A stretch of DNA of 52,478 nt from an uncultured Dehalococcoidaceae bacterium. Its GTDB lineage: Bacteria; Chloroflexota; Dehalococcoidia; Dehalococcoidales; RBG-16-60-22. Under the pieces are notes generated by a model. The model worked only from the letters and a program-made list of their open reading frames with translations, was not told where the DNA came from and made no database searches. Position 1 is the stretch's first letter. Every line of letters begins with the position of its first letter. The position numbers and the translations under genes are program-made. Positions 2,807-50,669 of the stretch are shown piece by piece. Location: contig CAZPSP010000001.1 of NCBI GenBank assembly GCA_964589285.1, positions 1 to 52,478 of the forward strand, read 5' to 3'.

Positions 2807-3770
2807 CCGGAAGCTTGCCCCCGATATAGTCCGGTGAAAGCTCCATCAGGGCGGTGAAAAAGTCCTGGATGTCATTCCGCGCATCTTCCGCAGGAACGTA
2901 ATCCCAGGTGATACGCTGCATGGATTCTGTCAATACCTCGGCGGTGAAACCCTGCTCGGCCAGCACCCTGGCGCCGAGTTCGCCGGCCTCCCCGGGATGG
3001 TCCAGCATCCACTCGATGGCTCTTTCGTACTCCTCGCGGAACCGCCGGACGACCTCGTCATTCTCCTTCATCGTCCCCAGGACCACCGTTCCGGCGATAG
3101 CGGAACGGCTGTCCCCTCCGGAGACAGTTTGCCATTCCGCGCCCATATTCAGGTTACGGTACAGGGTAATTCCGGAAGCGGCGGCCCGGTTGAGCACGGA
3201 CGTTGCGGACGGCTCGGACAACAATGCGTAGTGCTCCTGCCCGGAGAGGAGCAACTGCGAGGCCTGGACGGGGTCCGGCGCGTAGTAGATATCGATGTCC
3301 GTTTCCGGATCGACTCCTTCACTGGCGAGGACGTACTGGAAAACAGCATCCGGAACGGCCCCCTGGTACGGGACCACCACCGTTTTCCCGGCCAGGTCTG
3401 CGGCTGAACCGATGTCCGGATCGGTGCTGACAAGGAACAAGATATTCCAGATGGAACAGTCCAGTAATTGCAGGCCGATACCTTTATTGTAAAACGTTGC
3501 CGCGGAGGTGGTGGGCAGGGAAAGGAAGTCCCCCTGTCCTCCGGCGATGATAGCCTGGAGCTGGGTGGGCGTGGACCAGATGGTCAGCGTTGTTTCTTCC
3601 GCCACATCGCCAAGGCTGTTATTTTCCGCCATATATGCGAGGGGAATAGAGAGCGGGCCGATGGTCCCGACCAGCCGCACGGTCTCCAGCTTCTCCCCCT
3701 GTCCGGAAGAACACCCCGATAGGAGGGATATCAGCAGGACGATAATCAACCCTGATACTGTATATTTCAT
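2775..3770 (-). CDS. ABC transporter substrate-binding lipoprotein (NMT1/SsuA-like)
   Basis: Signal peptide with lipobox LLSGC. About 330-aa periplasmic binding-protein-like sequence, and the first gene of the three-gene ABC operon. Confidence 0.8.
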   Translation of the reverse strand: MKYTVSGLIIVLLISLLSGCSSGQGEKLETVRLVGTIGPLSIPLAYMAENNSLGDVAEETTLTIWSTPTQLQAIIAGGQGDFLSLPTTSAATFYNKGIGLQLLDCSIWNILFLVSTDPDIGSAADLAGKTVVVPYQGAVPDAVFQYVLASEGVDPETDIDIYYAPDPVQASQLLLSGQEHYALLSEPSATSVLNRAAASGITLYRNLNMGAEWQTVSGGDSRSAIAGTVVLGTMKENDEVVRRFREEYERAIEWMLDHPGEAGELGARVLAEQGFTAEVLTESMQRITWDYVPAEDARNDIQDFFTALMELSPDYIGGKLPDGAFYYGSQE

Positions 3771-3883
3771 TTTCCCGCCGGTTTTCTGAACGCTGTCCCA
3801 ATTCCATTATAATATGAAACCGTGTCCGGCGCGAACAGAAAACCCGGAGAAGGTAGCAACCGCGGCTGTTTTCCAGCCTGGTG

Positions 3884-6211
3884 TCAGCTTCTGATAAGGT
3901 AACTTACCGTGCCCCCAAAGGTCGCGTCATGGCGGAAGGATAATATGATGTAGATGATATTGTAAACGTCCAGCGGTGTTCCTGTCTCGAAGGCCGCGGA
4001 CGTATCCCCGGCCTGGACGTATGCCGAGATGTCAAAGGTATCGAGGTCGATGCCGTTGATATTCGGGTTGTCCAGCGTGTTCGAATATGAGTTGAAGATA
4101 TTGTTCGCGGGGTTCACACCGTCGCTGAGGACATTATCGTTCAGGCTGACATAGTCTCCGGTGTAGAAGGGGTCGCCTTCTCCGACGAAGCAGGTCAGGC
4201 GGCTGCCGGCCGGATTGGGAGGGGTCAGGAAGCCGGTGATCGGAAGGTTGACCGTATCGCCACCGCCCACGTACGTGAAATCATCATAGAGGTAGAGCTG
4301 ATGTCCAACCGTCTCCGGGCTCGTATAGATGAGTATCAGCGACCACCCGGCATAAGCCCATTCCCGGTAGCCCGTGCTCGTATTGGGAATGCCCAGCGGG
4401 TAACCGGTGCTGCCGCTCGGATAAAGGCTGACGGAATAACCGGGATCGTCCGGCCTGGTTCTCAGGACATGCCCGAGAGTATAGGTACCGCTGCCGTTCA
4501 TCCCGAGCTGGCCGTTATCTATCATGGTATTGATAAGGCCGGTGGCGTCATAGAAGCAGGAATAGGAATAGGTGCTTCCTGCGTTCTGGTCTACCTGCTG
4601 GCGGTCCGCGACGATTTCCTGCCCGTTGAACATGACGCGGTTGACCCCGAAATCTTCCTTAAATATCCGTATATTGTCGATATAAGCGCACTCGTCACCA
4701 AAATAGTCCGAACCATTAAAACCATCCAGATAGAACCTTAACCGGAAGCCGTCCGTCAGGAAACCGTCCGGAATCGTCCCGCTAAAGTCATTGACCGATG
4801 CGCCGCCCTGGAAGGCAGTGCTCATACTGCTCCAGGTCACGCCGTCATTGGCGGAAAACGAATACCGCAGCCGGTCTTCGAATTCGAGCCAACCGCCTGA
4901 GGACTGTTCCCAGGATATCTTGACTTCGGTACCCTGGTACGCGCTGAGGTCGACGCTGTAGTCCATCTGGAGATACCGGTCTGTTTCTTCATGGTCCGAG
5001 TCATGATGCCCCCGGAACTCACCATCATGGACGTCCCAGTCCGCGCCGATTATCCAGCCGATGGACTGCTGTTCCTCAATAACGATATCGGAGACGGCAT
5101 CGCTGAAAATATCAACCTCATGAATGTTGTCTATCCAGCCGGACCAGTACAGTCTCGCGGATTGAATGGTAGCCGTATCCGGCAGGTCGTTCTCAGCGAC
5201 GATGGCATTGCTCTCACTGAACAGGCGGTCGCGGTAACGTTCGTTCCAGGTCGTGGTCATGAGGGTATTTCCGATAGCCAGGTAGTCTCCGTTCACCGCG
5301 GAATCGAGTTCTCTGACCTCGCTTTTTCCTACGTAGATTTCCACGCAGGCTTCCCCGGCACGGCCGGTGATATGGAAGATACGTGTATCGGCATCCCAGG
5401 TAAAAGGAACATCCGGGGCGCCGCTGGTGGTGACCCAGGAGACCGCGGCCGGTCTCTGGTCCGGTTCCTGAGCCGTATAATCGAACGTTATCGTACTGAT
5501 GATCGAGGCGCCTTCAGAACTCACGTCCGGCCCGAATTCCTCAATGGGGACCGACCAGAAATGCCACAACACGGCCTCGCCGCTGGCATGAGGAAATACC
5601 TCGACGGAGTGCGGATAGTACGACGCGCCCGAATCCTCTTCCAAATTGCTGCTTCCCTCGACGTAACTGAAACCAGGCGGCAGCCACACTCCCAGGGTCT
5701 CTATTGCAGGTTCGTTGATACCGTCCGTGAAGAAACTGAGCCGTAACTGATAGGTGCTGCTTTCCGGCGGCGCTCCGCCGGACAACATCAGGAGCCCGTT
5801 TTCAATGATGGTCCTGGCTTCCAGATCGCCGGGAGCGGCGATGTTGCTCGGGAGCCAGACATTGTCCACTTCGACATTAACTTCATAGCCGTTGACCGGC
5901 GCTTCGAGGGTATAGTTCCAGCTCGATTGGAAATCATACTCCTGGTATGAAGACCCGAACACGGTGCTAAAATTGTCATACCTCGCATACCAGATACCGT
6001 CGTTGATGCCGGATTCAGCGGCGTAGATCTGGCGAGTATTATCTTCGAATATCATCCCGGTCTTGAAACCGGTACCCACATAGGAAAGTACGGGCGGGAC
6101 GACCAGAGTCGCCAGCGCCATGAAAACCAGGACGAGCGCCATGGCAGCTCCGGCCTCGTTCTTCCGGAACCTGTTCCAGACTGTTCGTACTTTATTATAC
6201 AATGCGTTCAT
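3884..6211 (-). CDS. large PilX-N-like pilus-associated protein (775 aa), last gene of the pilus operon
   Basis: The N-terminus KNEAGAAMALVLVFMALATLVVPPVL resembles the PilX N-terminal hydrophobic segment and lacks a canonical G/FTLIE cleavage motif. The rest is predicted extracellular. It starts 3 nt after the upstream prepilin gene. Confidence 0.8.
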   Translation of the reverse strand: MNALYNKVRTVWNRFRKNEAGAAMALVLVFMALATLVVPPVLSYVGTGFKTGMIFEDNTRQIYAAESGINDGIWYARYDNFSTVFGSSYQEYDFQSSWNYTLEAPVNGYEVNVEVDNVWLPSNIAAPGDLEARTIIENGLLMLSGGAPPESSTYQLRLSFFTDGINEPAIETLGVWLPPGFSYVEGSSNLEEDSGASYYPHSVEVFPHASGEAVLWHFWSVPIEEFGPDVSSEGASIISTITFDYTAQEPDQRPAAVSWVTTSGAPDVPFTWDADTRIFHITGRAGEACVEIYVGKSEVRELDSAVNGDYLAIGNTLMTTTWNERYRDRLFSESNAIVAENDLPDTATIQSARLYWSGWIDNIHEVDIFSDAVSDIVIEEQQSIGWIIGADWDVHDGEFRGHHDSDHEETDRYLQMDYSVDLSAYQGTEVKISWEQSSGGWLEFEDRLRYSFSANDGVTWSSMSTAFQGGASVNDFSGTIPDGFLTDGFRLRFYLDGFNGSDYFGDECAYIDNIRIFKEDFGVNRVMFNGQEIVADRQQVDQNAGSTYSYSCFYDATGLINTMIDNGQLGMNGSGTYTLGHVLRTRPDDPGYSVSLYPSGSTGYPLGIPNTSTGYREWAYAGWSLILIYTSPETVGHQLYLYDDFTYVGGGDTVNLPITGFLTPPNPAGSRLTCFVGEGDPFYTGDYVSLNDNVLSDGVNPANNIFNSYSNTLDNPNINGIDLDTFDISAYVQAGDTSAAFETGTPLDVYNIIYIILSFRHDATFGGTVSYLIRS

Positions 6212-46864: not shown

Positions 46865-47797
46865 CTATTCCCAGTCCGGCGGGCCTACCTGCTTCTGCTG
46901 GTCGTAGATATCGTTGTAGATGACCTTCCCGAAGTTCATATACGTGTCCCAGCGAGGGTGCCGGGGTTCGTCCGGGCAGGCGCGCATAATAGCGTCGTGG
47001 CGGGCGGCATAACCGGCCTTCCATTCCGGGTGGGTCATGATATAAAGATCATTGTTGCGGATGCCCCGCAGGACGCGCTCGCCGGTCTCGAGCGGATCCA
47101 TGGCGATGTCCTTCACCGGGGGGCGTTTCCGCTGCCCGCCGTCCTTCGGTGGTGGCGGCGGCCAGACTTCACCCTCGTTGCGCAGGTGTTCCGGCCGGTT
47201 CTCGAATGTCGACCTTCCCAGGTCCGTCGCGGTCAGCCCCGGGACCAGGATGGAAACGCCGATGTTCTTTGGTTTGAGTTCACCGGCAATGCTCTCCATG
47301 AGACCGCACACGGCGTACTTGGTGGTGCAGTAGATAGCCATATTGTCCGTACCCATCAGACCGCAGGTGGAAGAGGTGCTGACGATGTGCCCGCCTTCTC
47401 CATGTCTGATGATACGGGGCAGGATGGTCATGACGCCGTTGATGACGCCCCAGAGATTAACGTTGATGCCGTACTCCCAGTCCTTATAGTTGATCTTGTC
47501 GATCGGGCCGCCGCAGCCGATGCCCGCATTGTTGACGAGCACATGTATCTTACCGTAGACCTTTTCGGCCTCGTCGGCGGCGCGTACGTAGGCATCGCGG
47601 TCGGTCACGTCCAGATTGATGGGGTACACGTCCCCGCCGTTCTCCCTGAACCAGTCCATCGCTTCATCCAGCGCGTATTGCCGCATATCGACGATGACCA
47701 CTTTCATCTTGTGTTTCGCGAACACTTTGGCGATACCAAGACCGATGCCGCTGGCGCCGCCGGTGATGAACGCGACTTTTCCTTCGAACTTTTCCAT
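46865..47797 (-). CDS. SDR family oxidoreductase (310 aa, extended C-terminus)
   Basis: The track ORF was trimmed to the ATG at 47797, which has an AGGAG SD. It lies 17 nt after the upstream stop. Motifs: VAFITGGASGIGLG and NNAG, and the catalytic YCTTK. Confidence 0.88.
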   Translation of the reverse strand: MEKFEGKVAFITGGASGIGLGIAKVFAKHKMKVVIVDMRQYALDEAMDWFRENGGDVYPINLDVTDRDAYVRAADEAEKVYGKIHVLVNNAGIGCGGPIDKINYKDWEYGINVNLWGVINGVMTILPRIIRHGEGGHIVSTSSTCGLMGTDNMAIYCTTKYAVCGLMESIAGELKPKNIGVSILVPGLTATDLGRSTFENRPEHLRNEGEVWPPPPPKDGGQRKRPPVKDIAMDPLETGERVLRGIRNNDLYIMTHPEWKAGYAARHDAIMRACPDEPRHPRWDTYMNFGKVIYNDIYDQQKQVGPPDWE

Positions 47798-47814: not shown

Positions 47815-49509
47815 CTAATGCGAGATACCGCACGAGCCGTCAGCGCAGGCGATTCCCCCCGGCATACGCAGCGGCCGTTCATCCTTGCGGATGCCGCCTT
47901 TCGGTATCCATGGGTCGACAAGGACCGTCTGGAAATAGGTAAAATCGGTGGTTATCCATAGCGGATTGGTTTCCCCGCCAACGACCACGAAATTGACCAT
48001 GTCCGGGTTCTTGACCGGGAAGTCGGTCCTCTCCATAAGCCATTCGCTCAGTTTGCGCGGGTCATCGAAGCCTTCTTCGCGCTTGAGGCTCTTGGCGACG
48101 AGGGGGTCGATGACGAAGGTATACGAGCCGCCGAACGGTCCCGACGGTTTCATCTTTTCCAGCATCTGCTGAGACAGCCCGAAGCCGAGGTTCTGCATGT
48201 TCCAGCCCCTGAACAGACTCACCGTGCTCTGCTCCTTCTGGTATCCCTTCCGCACGTGGAACGGCTCCCAGGGGCTGTTCTCCTCATTTTCCGCGCAGCA
48301 CATGTTGTTGTAGTTGAGGTTATGTCCGGTACTGGCCGTGAACGTCGCTCCGAGCCTGGCGTCCCCCAGGTTGATACTCATCAGCGTCCATGCCCGCCCG
48401 ATGACTGAATTGGCGTAGTTGAACGGACTCAATGCCGCCCGGCCGCAATTCATGCCGCATTCGTTCCGAACCGGTCCGTTGACCACCATCATGCTGGCGA
48501 AGGAAGTGGTCGAGCTGGGCATGGACGGTCTCCCGGAAGCACCCAGCGCCAGGATGACCGGGAAGTGCTCCGGTCTCGCCCCGGCCATAACGGCGATGAC
48601 TGCTACCTTTTCCACGTTGTACTTGAGCCGTTCCTCGTGGGTGGTGACCGACATCATCCCGACATACTCGTCCGGCGCCCGTCCGGTACCGGTCAGCATC
48701 TCTGCTACACGTTCCTCGGTCGGCAGGACGATGGGCAGGCCGTCCGTCCAGCCGTTCTCCAGGAAGAGCCGGTGTAGTTCTTCCTCGGTGGCCGGTTCGA
48801 GCAGTCTCGGCCGCTGCGGCCTCTTGATCACTTTAGGATGGAGTTCCGCCTCGGTCAGCGGGCTGGTAAGAGCGTGGAAGATCTCGTCGAGCAGAGGCGC
48901 CCCGGAGACCGGGTCTTTGCCGGTGATGTATTCCCTTACGACCTCTCGTGGAATATAGCCCACCGGGTAAGGCGGGAAGGTCCAGCGCAGGTTCATGCCG
49001 TGGCTGCGGCCGTCACGCTGAACGTAATCAGCGAACATGGCGGTCACGATGGGGGCCGTGGGTATGCCATAGTCATGCTCAAGCGTCCGGGCAAATTCGG
49101 CGACACTCGCCGAACAGCCGTCTCAGCCACCCACACCAAGAATGGCGGCGTCACCGTTAGCCTTGATCTCTTTCCAGAGTTCCGGCTCGTCCGTGAACAT
49201 GCTCGTTTTCTTATGGCGCAGCACCGTTTTGATCTCCGGCCGGTTCCGGTTCAGCCAGTCCTGGAGTTCCTCCATAAACTCCTTGCTGCCGGCAAATCCC
49301 GTATTAACGAGGTACACGGTCTTGCCTTCCAGCGTATCCAAACGCGAGGCCATCTTCAGCGATTCCAGTGTCTCCTCGAACTGTCTCGGCTGGTATTCGG
49401 GGTCGTGGATCGCCCGGGGCGATGAATCGGGATCGAGACGGCGCCCGAAGATACCGCTGGGCTGTCCTACCGGGTCCAGGACCGTCAGTTTGGCACCTTT
49501 TCTTGGCAT
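47815..49509 (-). CDS. predicted selenoprotein, 564 codons with in-frame UGA (Sec129) at 49125-49123; U-x-x-C motif; function unknown
   Basis: Track ORFs 49123..49509 and 47815..49047 are in the same frame. The 75 nt between them are stop-free (DGCSASVAEFARTLEHDYGIPTAPI). The only good SD (AGGAG) is at the upstream ATG at 49509, and there is none before the downstream ORF. A SECIS-like hairpin follows the UGA. Confidence 0.7.
49090..49119 (-). promoter_or_regulatory. SECIS-like recoding stem-loop 3 nt downstream of the in-frame UGA
   Basis: mRNA sense: GGC-UG-UUCGGCG-AGUGU-CGCCGAA-UUU-GCC. This gives a 7-bp upper stem (8 bp with A-U closure), a 3-bp lower stem and G/U residues in the apical loop. 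The loop starts 16 nt after the UGA. Confidence 0.6.
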
Positions 49510-49620
49510 TTTACTCTCCTGACAAATTTATATCGTTTATGATAGTTCCTCTTTTGCTTTCGCAAAATACTAATCCAACCGCAGGTAAATTTCAAGTCCT
49601 ACCCGTCTCAACGGGCAGTT

Positions 49621-49649
49621 TTGCATCATTCGCTCCACGGCTGTACAAT
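49621..49649 (+). promoter_or_regulatory. candidate promoter TTGCAT-17 nt-TACAAT for the E1 alpha/beta genes
   Basis: -35 at 49621-49626 and -10 at 49644-49649, about 50 nt upstream of the ATG at 49701. Confidence 0.45.
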
Positions 49650-49700
49650 CAGGTAATCAGCGTAAGCACATTATCCGAGACCTACCCCCGGAGGAGACGC

Positions 49701-50669
49701 ATGACAATTGCCAACGAGACCATGATTGATTTATACCAGACGATGTTGACCATCCGTCGCTTCGAGGAACGCTGTATTGAAGACTTCGAGAGCGGCACCA
49801 TCCCCGGCCTGATCCACTCTTACATCGGCGAAGAAGCCATTGCCACCGGGGTTTGCGCCCATCTGAGAAAGGATGACCGCATCGTCAGTTACCACCGCGG
49901 GCACGGCCATACCATCGCCAAGGGGGCGGACCTCAACCGCATGATGGCGGAAGTGTACGGAAGAACGACCGGCTACTGTAAGGGCAAAGGAGGCTCGATG
50001 CATGTAGCAGACTTCGATATCGGCATGCTGGGCGCCAACGGCATCGTGGGCGGGGGCATACCCATCGGCGCCGGGGCAGCGATCGCCACCCAACTGGAGG
50101 GAGGAGACAAAATAGCCGTGCTCTTCTTCGGAGACGGCGCTACCAATGAGGGCGAGTTCCACGAAGTACTCAATCTGGCTTCCATCTGGAAACTGCCGCT
50201 GCTCTTCGCCTGCGAGAACAACGGCTGGGGCGTGAACACGCCGGTCAAGTACGCCACGGGCCTGGACCATATCTCGGACCGCGCAACCGGCGGCTACGGC
50301 ATCCCGAGTACGGTTGTGGACGGCAACGACGTCCGCGCCGTTTATGAAGCTACGAAAAAGGCCGTCGACCACGTGCGCACCCACGCCGGTCCGTACTTCA
50401 TGGAATATATTACCTACCGCTGGCGCGCCCATTATGAAGGACCGGGCATGCCGGACCTCCGCCCGGAGGAACTGCTCACCGAATGGCAGAAACGCTGTCC
50501 GGTGAAGTGTTTTGAGGATGTCCTCCTTAATGAAGGCGTCGTCACCCGCGCAGACCTGGATGAAATGAATGAGGCTGTCATGGCGCGTATCGAAGAAGCC
50601 GTCAGGTTCGCCAGCGAAAGCTTGTGGCCGGCCCCGGAAGATGCTTTACAGGATGTCTATTCACCGTAA
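49701..50669 (+). CDS. thiamine-diphosphate-dependent 2-oxoacid/acetoin dehydrogenase E1 alpha subunit
   Basis: The track ORF was trimmed to the ATG at 49701, which has a GGAGGAG SD. MLTIRRFEE...HSYIGEEA...YHRGHGH, and the TPP motif GDGATNEGEFHE...NNGWG. Confidence 0.9.
   Translation: MTIANETMIDLYQTMLTIRRFEERCIEDFESGTIPGLIHSYIGEEAIATGVCAHLRKDDRIVSYHRGHGHTIAKGADLNRMMAEVYGRTTGYCKGKGGSMHVADFDIGMLGANGIVGGGIPIGAGAAIATQLEGGDKIAVLFFGDGATNEGEFHEVLNLASIWKLPLLFACENNGWGVNTPVKYATGLDHISDRATGGYGIPSTVVDGNDVRAVYEATKKAVDHVRTHAGPYFMEYITYRWRAHYEGPGMPDLRPEELLTEWQKRCPVKCFEDVLLNEGVVTRADLDEMNEAVMARIEEAVRFASESLWPAPEDALQDVYSP

Follow-up and report, generated by a model that had tools for sequence, protein, structure and literature searches.

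The DNA analysed here, called the window throughout, is a stretch of 52,478 nucleotides from an uncultured Dehalococcoidaceae bacterium (assembly GCA_964589285.1, contig CAZPSP010000001.1, positions 1 to 52,478). On its minus strand lies a gene with an in-frame UGA at codon 129 and a hairpin immediately downstream. We conclude, with a probability of about 0.93, that this hairpin is a bacterial selenocysteine insertion sequence (bSECIS) that causes UGA 129 to be read as selenocysteine (Sec). The SECIS itself is ordinary; the gene that carries it belongs to the known but uncharacterised UGSC family of selenoproteins.

Structure of the hairpin and fit to the bSECIS consensus

The original prediction, made from the sequence alone, placed the UGA at 49125-49123 of the minus strand, as confirmed by direct reading. 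The pairing it proposed, of UUCGGCG (49114-49108) with CGCCGAA (49102-49096) around AGUGU (49107-49103), is correct base for base, and the loop G and U do fall at +20 and +21, counting the U of the UGA as +1. In the RNAfold structure this upper stem is longer, with 9 bp of which G49115-U49095 is the first and A49107-U49103 the last, and it encloses a GUG triloop (Table 1). An outer helix of GGC (49119-49117) with GCC (49092-49090) had also been proposed. These bases can indeed pair in this gene, but the orthologues do not conserve the pairing: in an alignment of 43 orthologues (A2, the group 1 described below) pairs 7-36, 8-35 and 9-34 are formed in 37, 26 and 12 sequences, the last being broken in 31.

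The published bSECIS consensus (PMC13188914) comprises a loop of 3-9 nt, a stem of 4-16 bp, a G followed by G or U early in the loop, a spacing of 16-37 nt and a minimum free energy of at most -7.5 kcal/mol. The suggestion that the hairpin is SECIS-like agrees with this consensus at every sequence-level point. The stem-loop is inside the coding region directly 3' of the UGA, with the stem beginning 8-10 nt after it, and can be drawn either as a 3-nt loop (GUG) on 9 bp or as a 5-nt loop (AGUGU) on 7-8 bp. The loop follows the pattern N1-G-[G|U]-N-N2, here A-G-U-G-U with an A and U able to pair, and starts 16 nt after the UGA (15 nt if the loop is taken as AGUGU). Its free energy is -12.2 kcal/mol when the structure is evaluated alone and -12.7 kcal/mol as a 24-nt fold. 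The hairpin is conserved with compensatory changes, and covariation, synonymous constraint and the scanner results given below indicate that it is maintained by selection and absent at non-UGA codons.

Conservation of the UGA and restriction of the hairpin to UGA sites

We compared 78 homologous loci on contigs taken at one genome per species from Dehalococcoidales, Desulfobacterota, Acidobacteriota, Actinomycetota, Bacillota and one Spirochaete metagenome-assembled genome (MAG). Among the 76 loci that could be aligned at codon 129, 72 read TGA there; L095 alone reads TGC (Cys), and the other three encode Leu. When 42 Sec genes were followed over their full length, each contained exactly one in-frame stop, a TGA, in about 550 codons. 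It is scarcely credible, given this distribution, that the gene is a pseudogene or an assembly error in which a formerly Cys-containing gene has taken on a nonsense mutation. The source is admittedly a fragmented MAG of 296 contigs, but 72 independent assemblies, spread over several phyla, share this TGA at this codon, in genes that are otherwise undisrupted.

Gene callers split the gene into a 128-aa open reading frame (ORF; 49509-49123) and a 410-aa ORF (49047-47815). A protein search returned more than 5,600 relatives, and nearly all of the best matches are recorded as proteins of 393-425 aa, mostly labelled hypothetical, starting just past the UGA position. These public records, together with the use of TGA as a normal stop elsewhere in the window, favour the view that the UGA is a true stop between two genes (128 aa and 410 aa), the hairpin being incidental or serving termination-reinitiation coupling or mRNA stability. 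We consider this very improbable. The UGSC domain of Pfam (PF24696) matches residues 40-193 at 76.3 bits against a gathering cut-off of 25, a match that spans the stop, and the AlphaFold2 model (predicted local distance difference test, pLDDT, 90.5; predicted template modelling score, pTM, 0.91) is continuous across residue 129; because both run through the UGA, they support recoding. Moreover, 25 codons separate the UGA from the first possible start; this interval stays in frame in all orthologues, and its peptide is conserved. In an uninterrupted Desulfobacteraceae homologue of 599 aa, the UGA is replaced by a Cys codon, TGC in the DNA, at the aligned position.

The original prediction was to be abandoned if orthologues with UGA lacked a conserved structure at this site. 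We found that every UGA-bearing orthologue folds a hairpin at the same place. A purpose-written bSECIS scanner, which demanded five contiguous base pairs and allowed a spacing of 14-37 nt, passed 37 of 42 orthologous UGA sites (88%), with the loop always 16-18 nt after the UGA, and none of the four sites with Cys or Leu codons. Its background rate was 2.5% (605 of 23,855 other codon positions in the same genes). No such hairpin is present in homologues with Leu, Ser or Thr at the Sec position. The Cys homologue L095 (3481-3525) keeps most of the stem but carries the loop Ser codon AGC instead of AGU; the G-U loop is therefore gone, and the site fails the consensus test. It appears that Sec was recently converted to Cys here and that the SECIS is decaying.

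In one of the loci surveyed, on a Bacillota MAG contig (L034; DUUE01000073.1), the tblastn match covers 3001-4650. The Sec-region peptide matches best at nt 5065, about 400 nt beyond that stretch, where a second paralogue probably lies in tandem.

Compensatory changes and synonymous constraint

Covariation was proposed from the outset as a test of the stem, and we counted it on ungapped codon alignments of two groups of orthologues. Group 1, to which the window gene belongs (A2; 43 sequences, L017-L089), has the peptide U-D/E-G/A-C-S-A-S and a stem UCGGCG/CGCCGA around (A)GUN(U). Group 2 (A3; L056-L094) has the peptides U-P-G-C or U-S-T-C, a stem placed 1.5 nt further 3', and a loop that is mostly GGUC or AGUU. 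Compensatory changes were seen in both. In group 1 each core pair forms in 39-43 of 43 sequences, seven pairs have changed on both sides (for example from G-C to A-U, C-G or U-A), and changes at third codon positions are compensated, as in GCG/..C to GCC/..G. Cells of this alignment are paired in 83.7% of cases, versus 29-48% when the partner is slid. The figure for group 2, over all 8 pairs, is 72.4% versus 27-72%, and double-change cells number 35 versus 14.8 expected. Pair 15-30 of group 2 occurs as GC, CG, UA and AU, while pair 18-27 is GC in 19 sequences and AU in 7, with no one-sided changes. The covariation score was reached by none of 500 shuffles in either group. The loop is conserved as well: AGU is retained in 40 of 43 group 1 orthologues, with A19, G20 and T21 nearly invariant, and most group 2 sequences have GGUC or AGUU.

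Further evidence for selection on the hairpin comes from codon choice. When synonymous codons were compared over 218 eligible columns in 42 Sec orthologues, codons +4, +5, +6 and +8 after the UGA, all of them in the stem-loop, gave the four lowest entropies of the gene (Table 1). By contrast, all synonyms are used for the Gly and Val codons just 5' of the UGA and for the Arg and Leu codons just 3' of the stem. That the lowest entropies fall on stem codons while the flanking codons remain free indicates selection on the RNA, not on the peptide.

A covariance model of group 1, run over the 52-kb window, has no hit besides this site and the reverse complement of its palindromic hairpin. A paralogue in the same genome that was outside the training set (L108) is matched too, at 57.9 bits. 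Hairpins of the other register are found weakly, so a single model does not cover both registers. Register and post-Sec peptide vary together: S-A-S-V/I-A goes with (A)GUN(U) at 16 nt, and V/A-x-A-V-A with GGUC or AGUU at 17 nt. Three genes that otherwise resemble group 1 (L045, L053 and L085) have switched to the GGUC register.

These data bear on the possibility that the UGA does encode Sec but that the stem is a by-product of the peptide C-S-A-S-V-A-E and GC-rich codons, with insertion relying on another element or on none. The codons of Ala-x-x-Ala, GCN...GCC, are inherently complementary; a share of synonymous recodings of the site is as stable as the native one (see below); and a similar stem persists in L095, the Cys homologue. 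Against this, the stem codons have the most constrained synonymous choice in the whole gene and third-position changes are compensated. Each of the sub-families UPGCVSAVA, UGSCTPAVA and USTCAPSVA retains, in a different register, a hairpin whose G-G/U loop lies at 16-18 nt. In L095 the GU loop is lost along with the consensus match, and Leu, Ser and Thr homologues are without the hairpin. We therefore hold a by-product to be highly unlikely and retain the bSECIS.

Folding stability as a test

A second ground named for dropping the original prediction was a stem no more stable than shuffled controls. The free energy of the site in a 51-nt context is -21.7 kcal/mol, a value that 4 of 200 dinucleotide shuffles reach (z = -2.25). 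Codon-preserving controls, the comparison first suggested, place the stem beyond chance, but only moderately so, since 75 of 2000 synonymous recodings (3.75%) are no less stable (z = -2.0). More stable 42-nt windows occur at two further positions of the gene. The validated SECIS of E. coli fdhF, taken through the same shuffle test, gave z = +0.55, with 142 of 200 dinucleotide shuffles equally stable. Because a validated element fails it, the comparison is invalid as a deciding test, and shuffle-based stability cannot serve to reject candidate bacterial SECIS elements. The meaningful tests are conservation, covariation and restriction to UGA, and the hairpin displays all three.

Selenocysteine machinery and other selenoprotein genes

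The assembly (296 contigs, 2.77 Mb, 93.7% complete) encodes a tRNA-Sec (73 bits; called by ARAGORN as tRNA-SeC with anticodon tca), a full-length SelB (356 bits, contig C90) and SelA (548 bits). It also contains a second, canonical SECIS: the formate dehydrogenase alpha subunit FdhA (L112, C4:6367-8364 (-); 854 bits) has one in-frame UGA, in CARL-U-HAPTVAG, and a hairpin GUGGCC/GGCCAC around GGUUU that begins 12 nt after it. Eleven genes with a UGSC domain are present (L101-L111, on C82, C79, C19 with two, C1, C242, C78 with two, C126, C112 and C21), nine of which have one in-frame TGA. The open frames of most paralogues span 480-620 aa, a length indicative of fusions, and one is a stand-alone form of 192 aa. 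All seven Sec paralogues that could be mapped, the window gene included, carry a hairpin after the TGA, and no such hairpin occurs at that position in the two paralogues that lack TGA and have Ser or Thr there. We considered whether UGA might be reassigned throughout the genome (genetic code 4 or 25) and rejected the idea: in the window 13 of 43 long ORFs end at TGA as an ordinary stop, and the residue aligned in the homologue is Cys.

By analogy with the established E. coli mechanism, SelB would bind the hairpin and Sec would be inserted at UGA 129. As the codon reaches the ribosomal A site, the stem-loop, 11-31 nt downstream, would still be folded at the mRNA entrance, where the C-terminal winged-helix domains of SelB would bind the apical G-U loop. 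SelB would then hand Sec-tRNA(Sec) (anticodon UCA) to the UGA, and selenocysteine would be inserted instead of termination. In a last step the ribosome would melt the hairpin while translating Cys-Ser-Ala-Ser-Val-Ala-Glu-Phe. The predicted product, a selenoprotein of the UGSC family, would have its redox motif U129-x-x-C132 where a helix starts and would be fused to a domain of ~370 residues.

Several observations weigh against a bSECIS at this site. The stability of the single sequence is modest (z about -2), and the spacing of 15-16 nt is at the lower edge of the consensus range of 16-37 nt. The conserved peptide Ala-Ser-Val/Ile-Ala by itself favours part of the stem complementarity. An Rfam scan of positions 48000-50000, with E values up to 10, found no SECIS family and only a chance match to a snoRNA. 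Lastly, SelD was not found in this 93.7%-complete assembly, in which the best matches are ThiL-like, HypE-like and another protein of the AIR-synthase type. Of 20 relatives, 14 encode a SelD whose gene has an in-frame TGA; these 14 include one of the same genus, and two of three same-genus assemblies lack SelD. Because 14 of 20 relatives have the Sec type of SelD, we attribute its absence here to what is probably an assembly gap.

The predicted selenoprotein and its neighbour

The N-terminal domain of the protein falls in the UGSC family by its Pfam match, while the corresponding NCBIfam equivalog, NF041046, gives 54.7 bits, below its cut-off of 125. On sequence grounds the protein is a divergent, fused branch of the family and not the stand-alone equivalog. 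Its motif U129-D-G-C132 aligns with U-G-S-C in two paralogues of the same genome (L103, L106) and with U-G-A-C in a third (L104), and positions C129 and C132 are nearly invariant in alignment A4. In the AlphaFold2 model Sec129 sits between a strand (121-127) and a helix (130-146).

The remaining ~370 residues form an unnamed C-terminal domain, which is modelled with confidence. It has no match in Pfam (E up to 10), in NCBIfam or in a profile search of the PDB, and a Foldseek search of the model against the PDB gave generic alpha/beta matches only (query template modelling score, TM-score, <= 0.19). The domain ends in a conserved tail, C555-A-D-G-S-C560 (C-x-D-G-x-C), in which C555 is nearly invariant. 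Model confidence is low there, and the tail may be a mobile redox arm.

A gene for a short-chain dehydrogenase/reductase (SDR) follows on the same strand (Table 1). In 31 of 78 related loci (L017-L091), drawn from several phyla, a homologous SDR is the immediate neighbour of the UGSC-fusion gene. It lies downstream in close orthologues; in the U-P-G-C sub-family it is found upstream, on the same strand. The arrangement suggests that the two genes form a conserved functional unit. A U-x-x-C domain, a ~370-residue domain without relatives, an adjacent SDR, at least nine Sec paralogues in the genome and occurrence in several anaerobe-rich phyla together raise the possibility that the gene supplies the catalytic core of NAD(P)H-linked selenoenzymes that form an unrecognised family, a tentative reading to which we give somewhat less than an even chance.

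Table 1. Positions of the hairpin, the gene that contains it and adjoining features, with codon usage in the stem-loop
Feature	Position	Strand	Details
In-frame UGA, codon 129	49123..49125	(-)	probably read as selenocysteine; first residue of U-D-G-C redox-type motif
Probable SECIS, upper stem-loop	49095..49115	(-)	RNAfold, ortholog pairing, synonymous constraint
5' arm of stem	49115-49107	(-)	GUUCGGCGA
3' arm of stem	49103-49095	(-)	UCGCCGAAU
Apical loop	49106-49104	(-)	GUG; AGUGU (49107-49103) if the A-U closing pair is open
Conserved core of stem, 7 bp	49113-49107 with 49103-49097	(-)	formed in most orthologues
Hairpin RNA, 21 nt			GUUCGGCGAGUGUCGCCGAAU
Lower helix, 5' half GGC	49117..49119	(-)	present here; not a conserved part of the element
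Lower helix, 3' half GCC	49090..49092	(-)	present here; not a conserved part of the element
Codon +4 after UGA			Ser; TCG 23/25
Codon +5 after UGA			Ala; GCG 25/29
Codon +6 after UGA			Ser; AGT 25/26
Codon +8 after UGA			Ala; GCC 37/41
Predicted selenoprotein gene, 564 codons plus stop	47815..49509	(-)	frame open with TGA = U; PF24696 match; one TGA in orthologues; AlphaFold2
Ribosome-binding site AGGAGAG (49520-49514) and ATG start (49509-49507)	49507..49520	(-)	direct reading
Unnamed C-terminal domain, residues ~195-564	47815-48930	(-)	ends in C555-x4-C560
SDR gene	46865..47797	(-)	17 nt downstream, same strand; ORF; not part of the SECIS

Implications and comparison with known systems

The finding leaves the known mechanism of Sec insertion unchanged. 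Its consequence is for annotation, in which this gene and thousands of database homologues are cut in two at the Sec codon. Recognition of the SECIS restores a selenoprotein of 564 residues and enlarges the selenoproteome of a selenoprotein-rich lineage; Dehalococcoidia are among the selenoprotein-rich bacteria in BSepDB (PMC13326102). The element constrains the choice of both codons and peptide, and its two registers, which co-vary with the peptide, offer a clean example from nature of protein sequence shaped by an RNA signal. For the consensus bSECIS model the finding provides unusually clean comparative support in a Dehalococcoidales-like lineage. Interest shifts from the hairpin to the protein, with its ~370-residue domain without relatives, its C555 tail, its SDR neighbour and the expansion of its paralogues.

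UGSC-containing proteins have been a predicted selenoprotein family with a UxxC motif since the surveys of ocean metagenomes, where they were among the most abundant (PMC2398784), and the family is listed with NF041046 in a 2026 review (PMC13188914). The protein described here shares with this family (PF24696, NF041046) an N-terminal domain above the Pfam threshold and a Sec that comes first in UxxC at the equivalent position. The function of the family is likewise uncharacterised and presumed to be redox, and a fusion to an unnamed domain was noted in 2008: Zhang and Gladyshev (PMC2398784) record a 'UGSC/Unknown_1' fusion, in which Unknown_1 may correspond to the C-terminal domain here. The motif differs, being U-D-G-C here and not U-G-S-C, as does the length, 564 aa versus about 150-190 aa.

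Relative to the bSECIS model of Zhang and Gladyshev (bSECISearch; PMC13188914), the hairpin agrees in loop, stem, G-G/U and spacing as well as in free energy. What sets it apart is a spacing right at the bottom of the range (16 nt, or 15 nt with the A-U closing pair counted in the loop).

The experimentally defined bacterial SECIS of E. coli fdhF, read from NC_000913.3 (4298893-4298949), is also a hairpin in the coding sequence directly after a Sec UGA. The likeness in geometry that the original prediction drew with it holds, both having a small apical G-U loop: GGUC at +22 to +25 in fdhF, and +20 to +22 here, or (A)GUG(U) from +19/+20 to +22/+23 with the closing bases included. The loop is 2-3 nt nearer the UGA in the window gene. 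The GGUC of fdhF recurs in the U-P-G-C sister sub-family and in paralogues of the same genome (GGUC or AGUU), and in group 2 it lies at +21 to +24. The upper stem of fdhF carries a bulged U, whereas the stem here is a perfect helix of 7-9 bp. A conserved lower helix is missing in the present element, and its cognate SelB would be that of a Dehalococcoidales-like organism.

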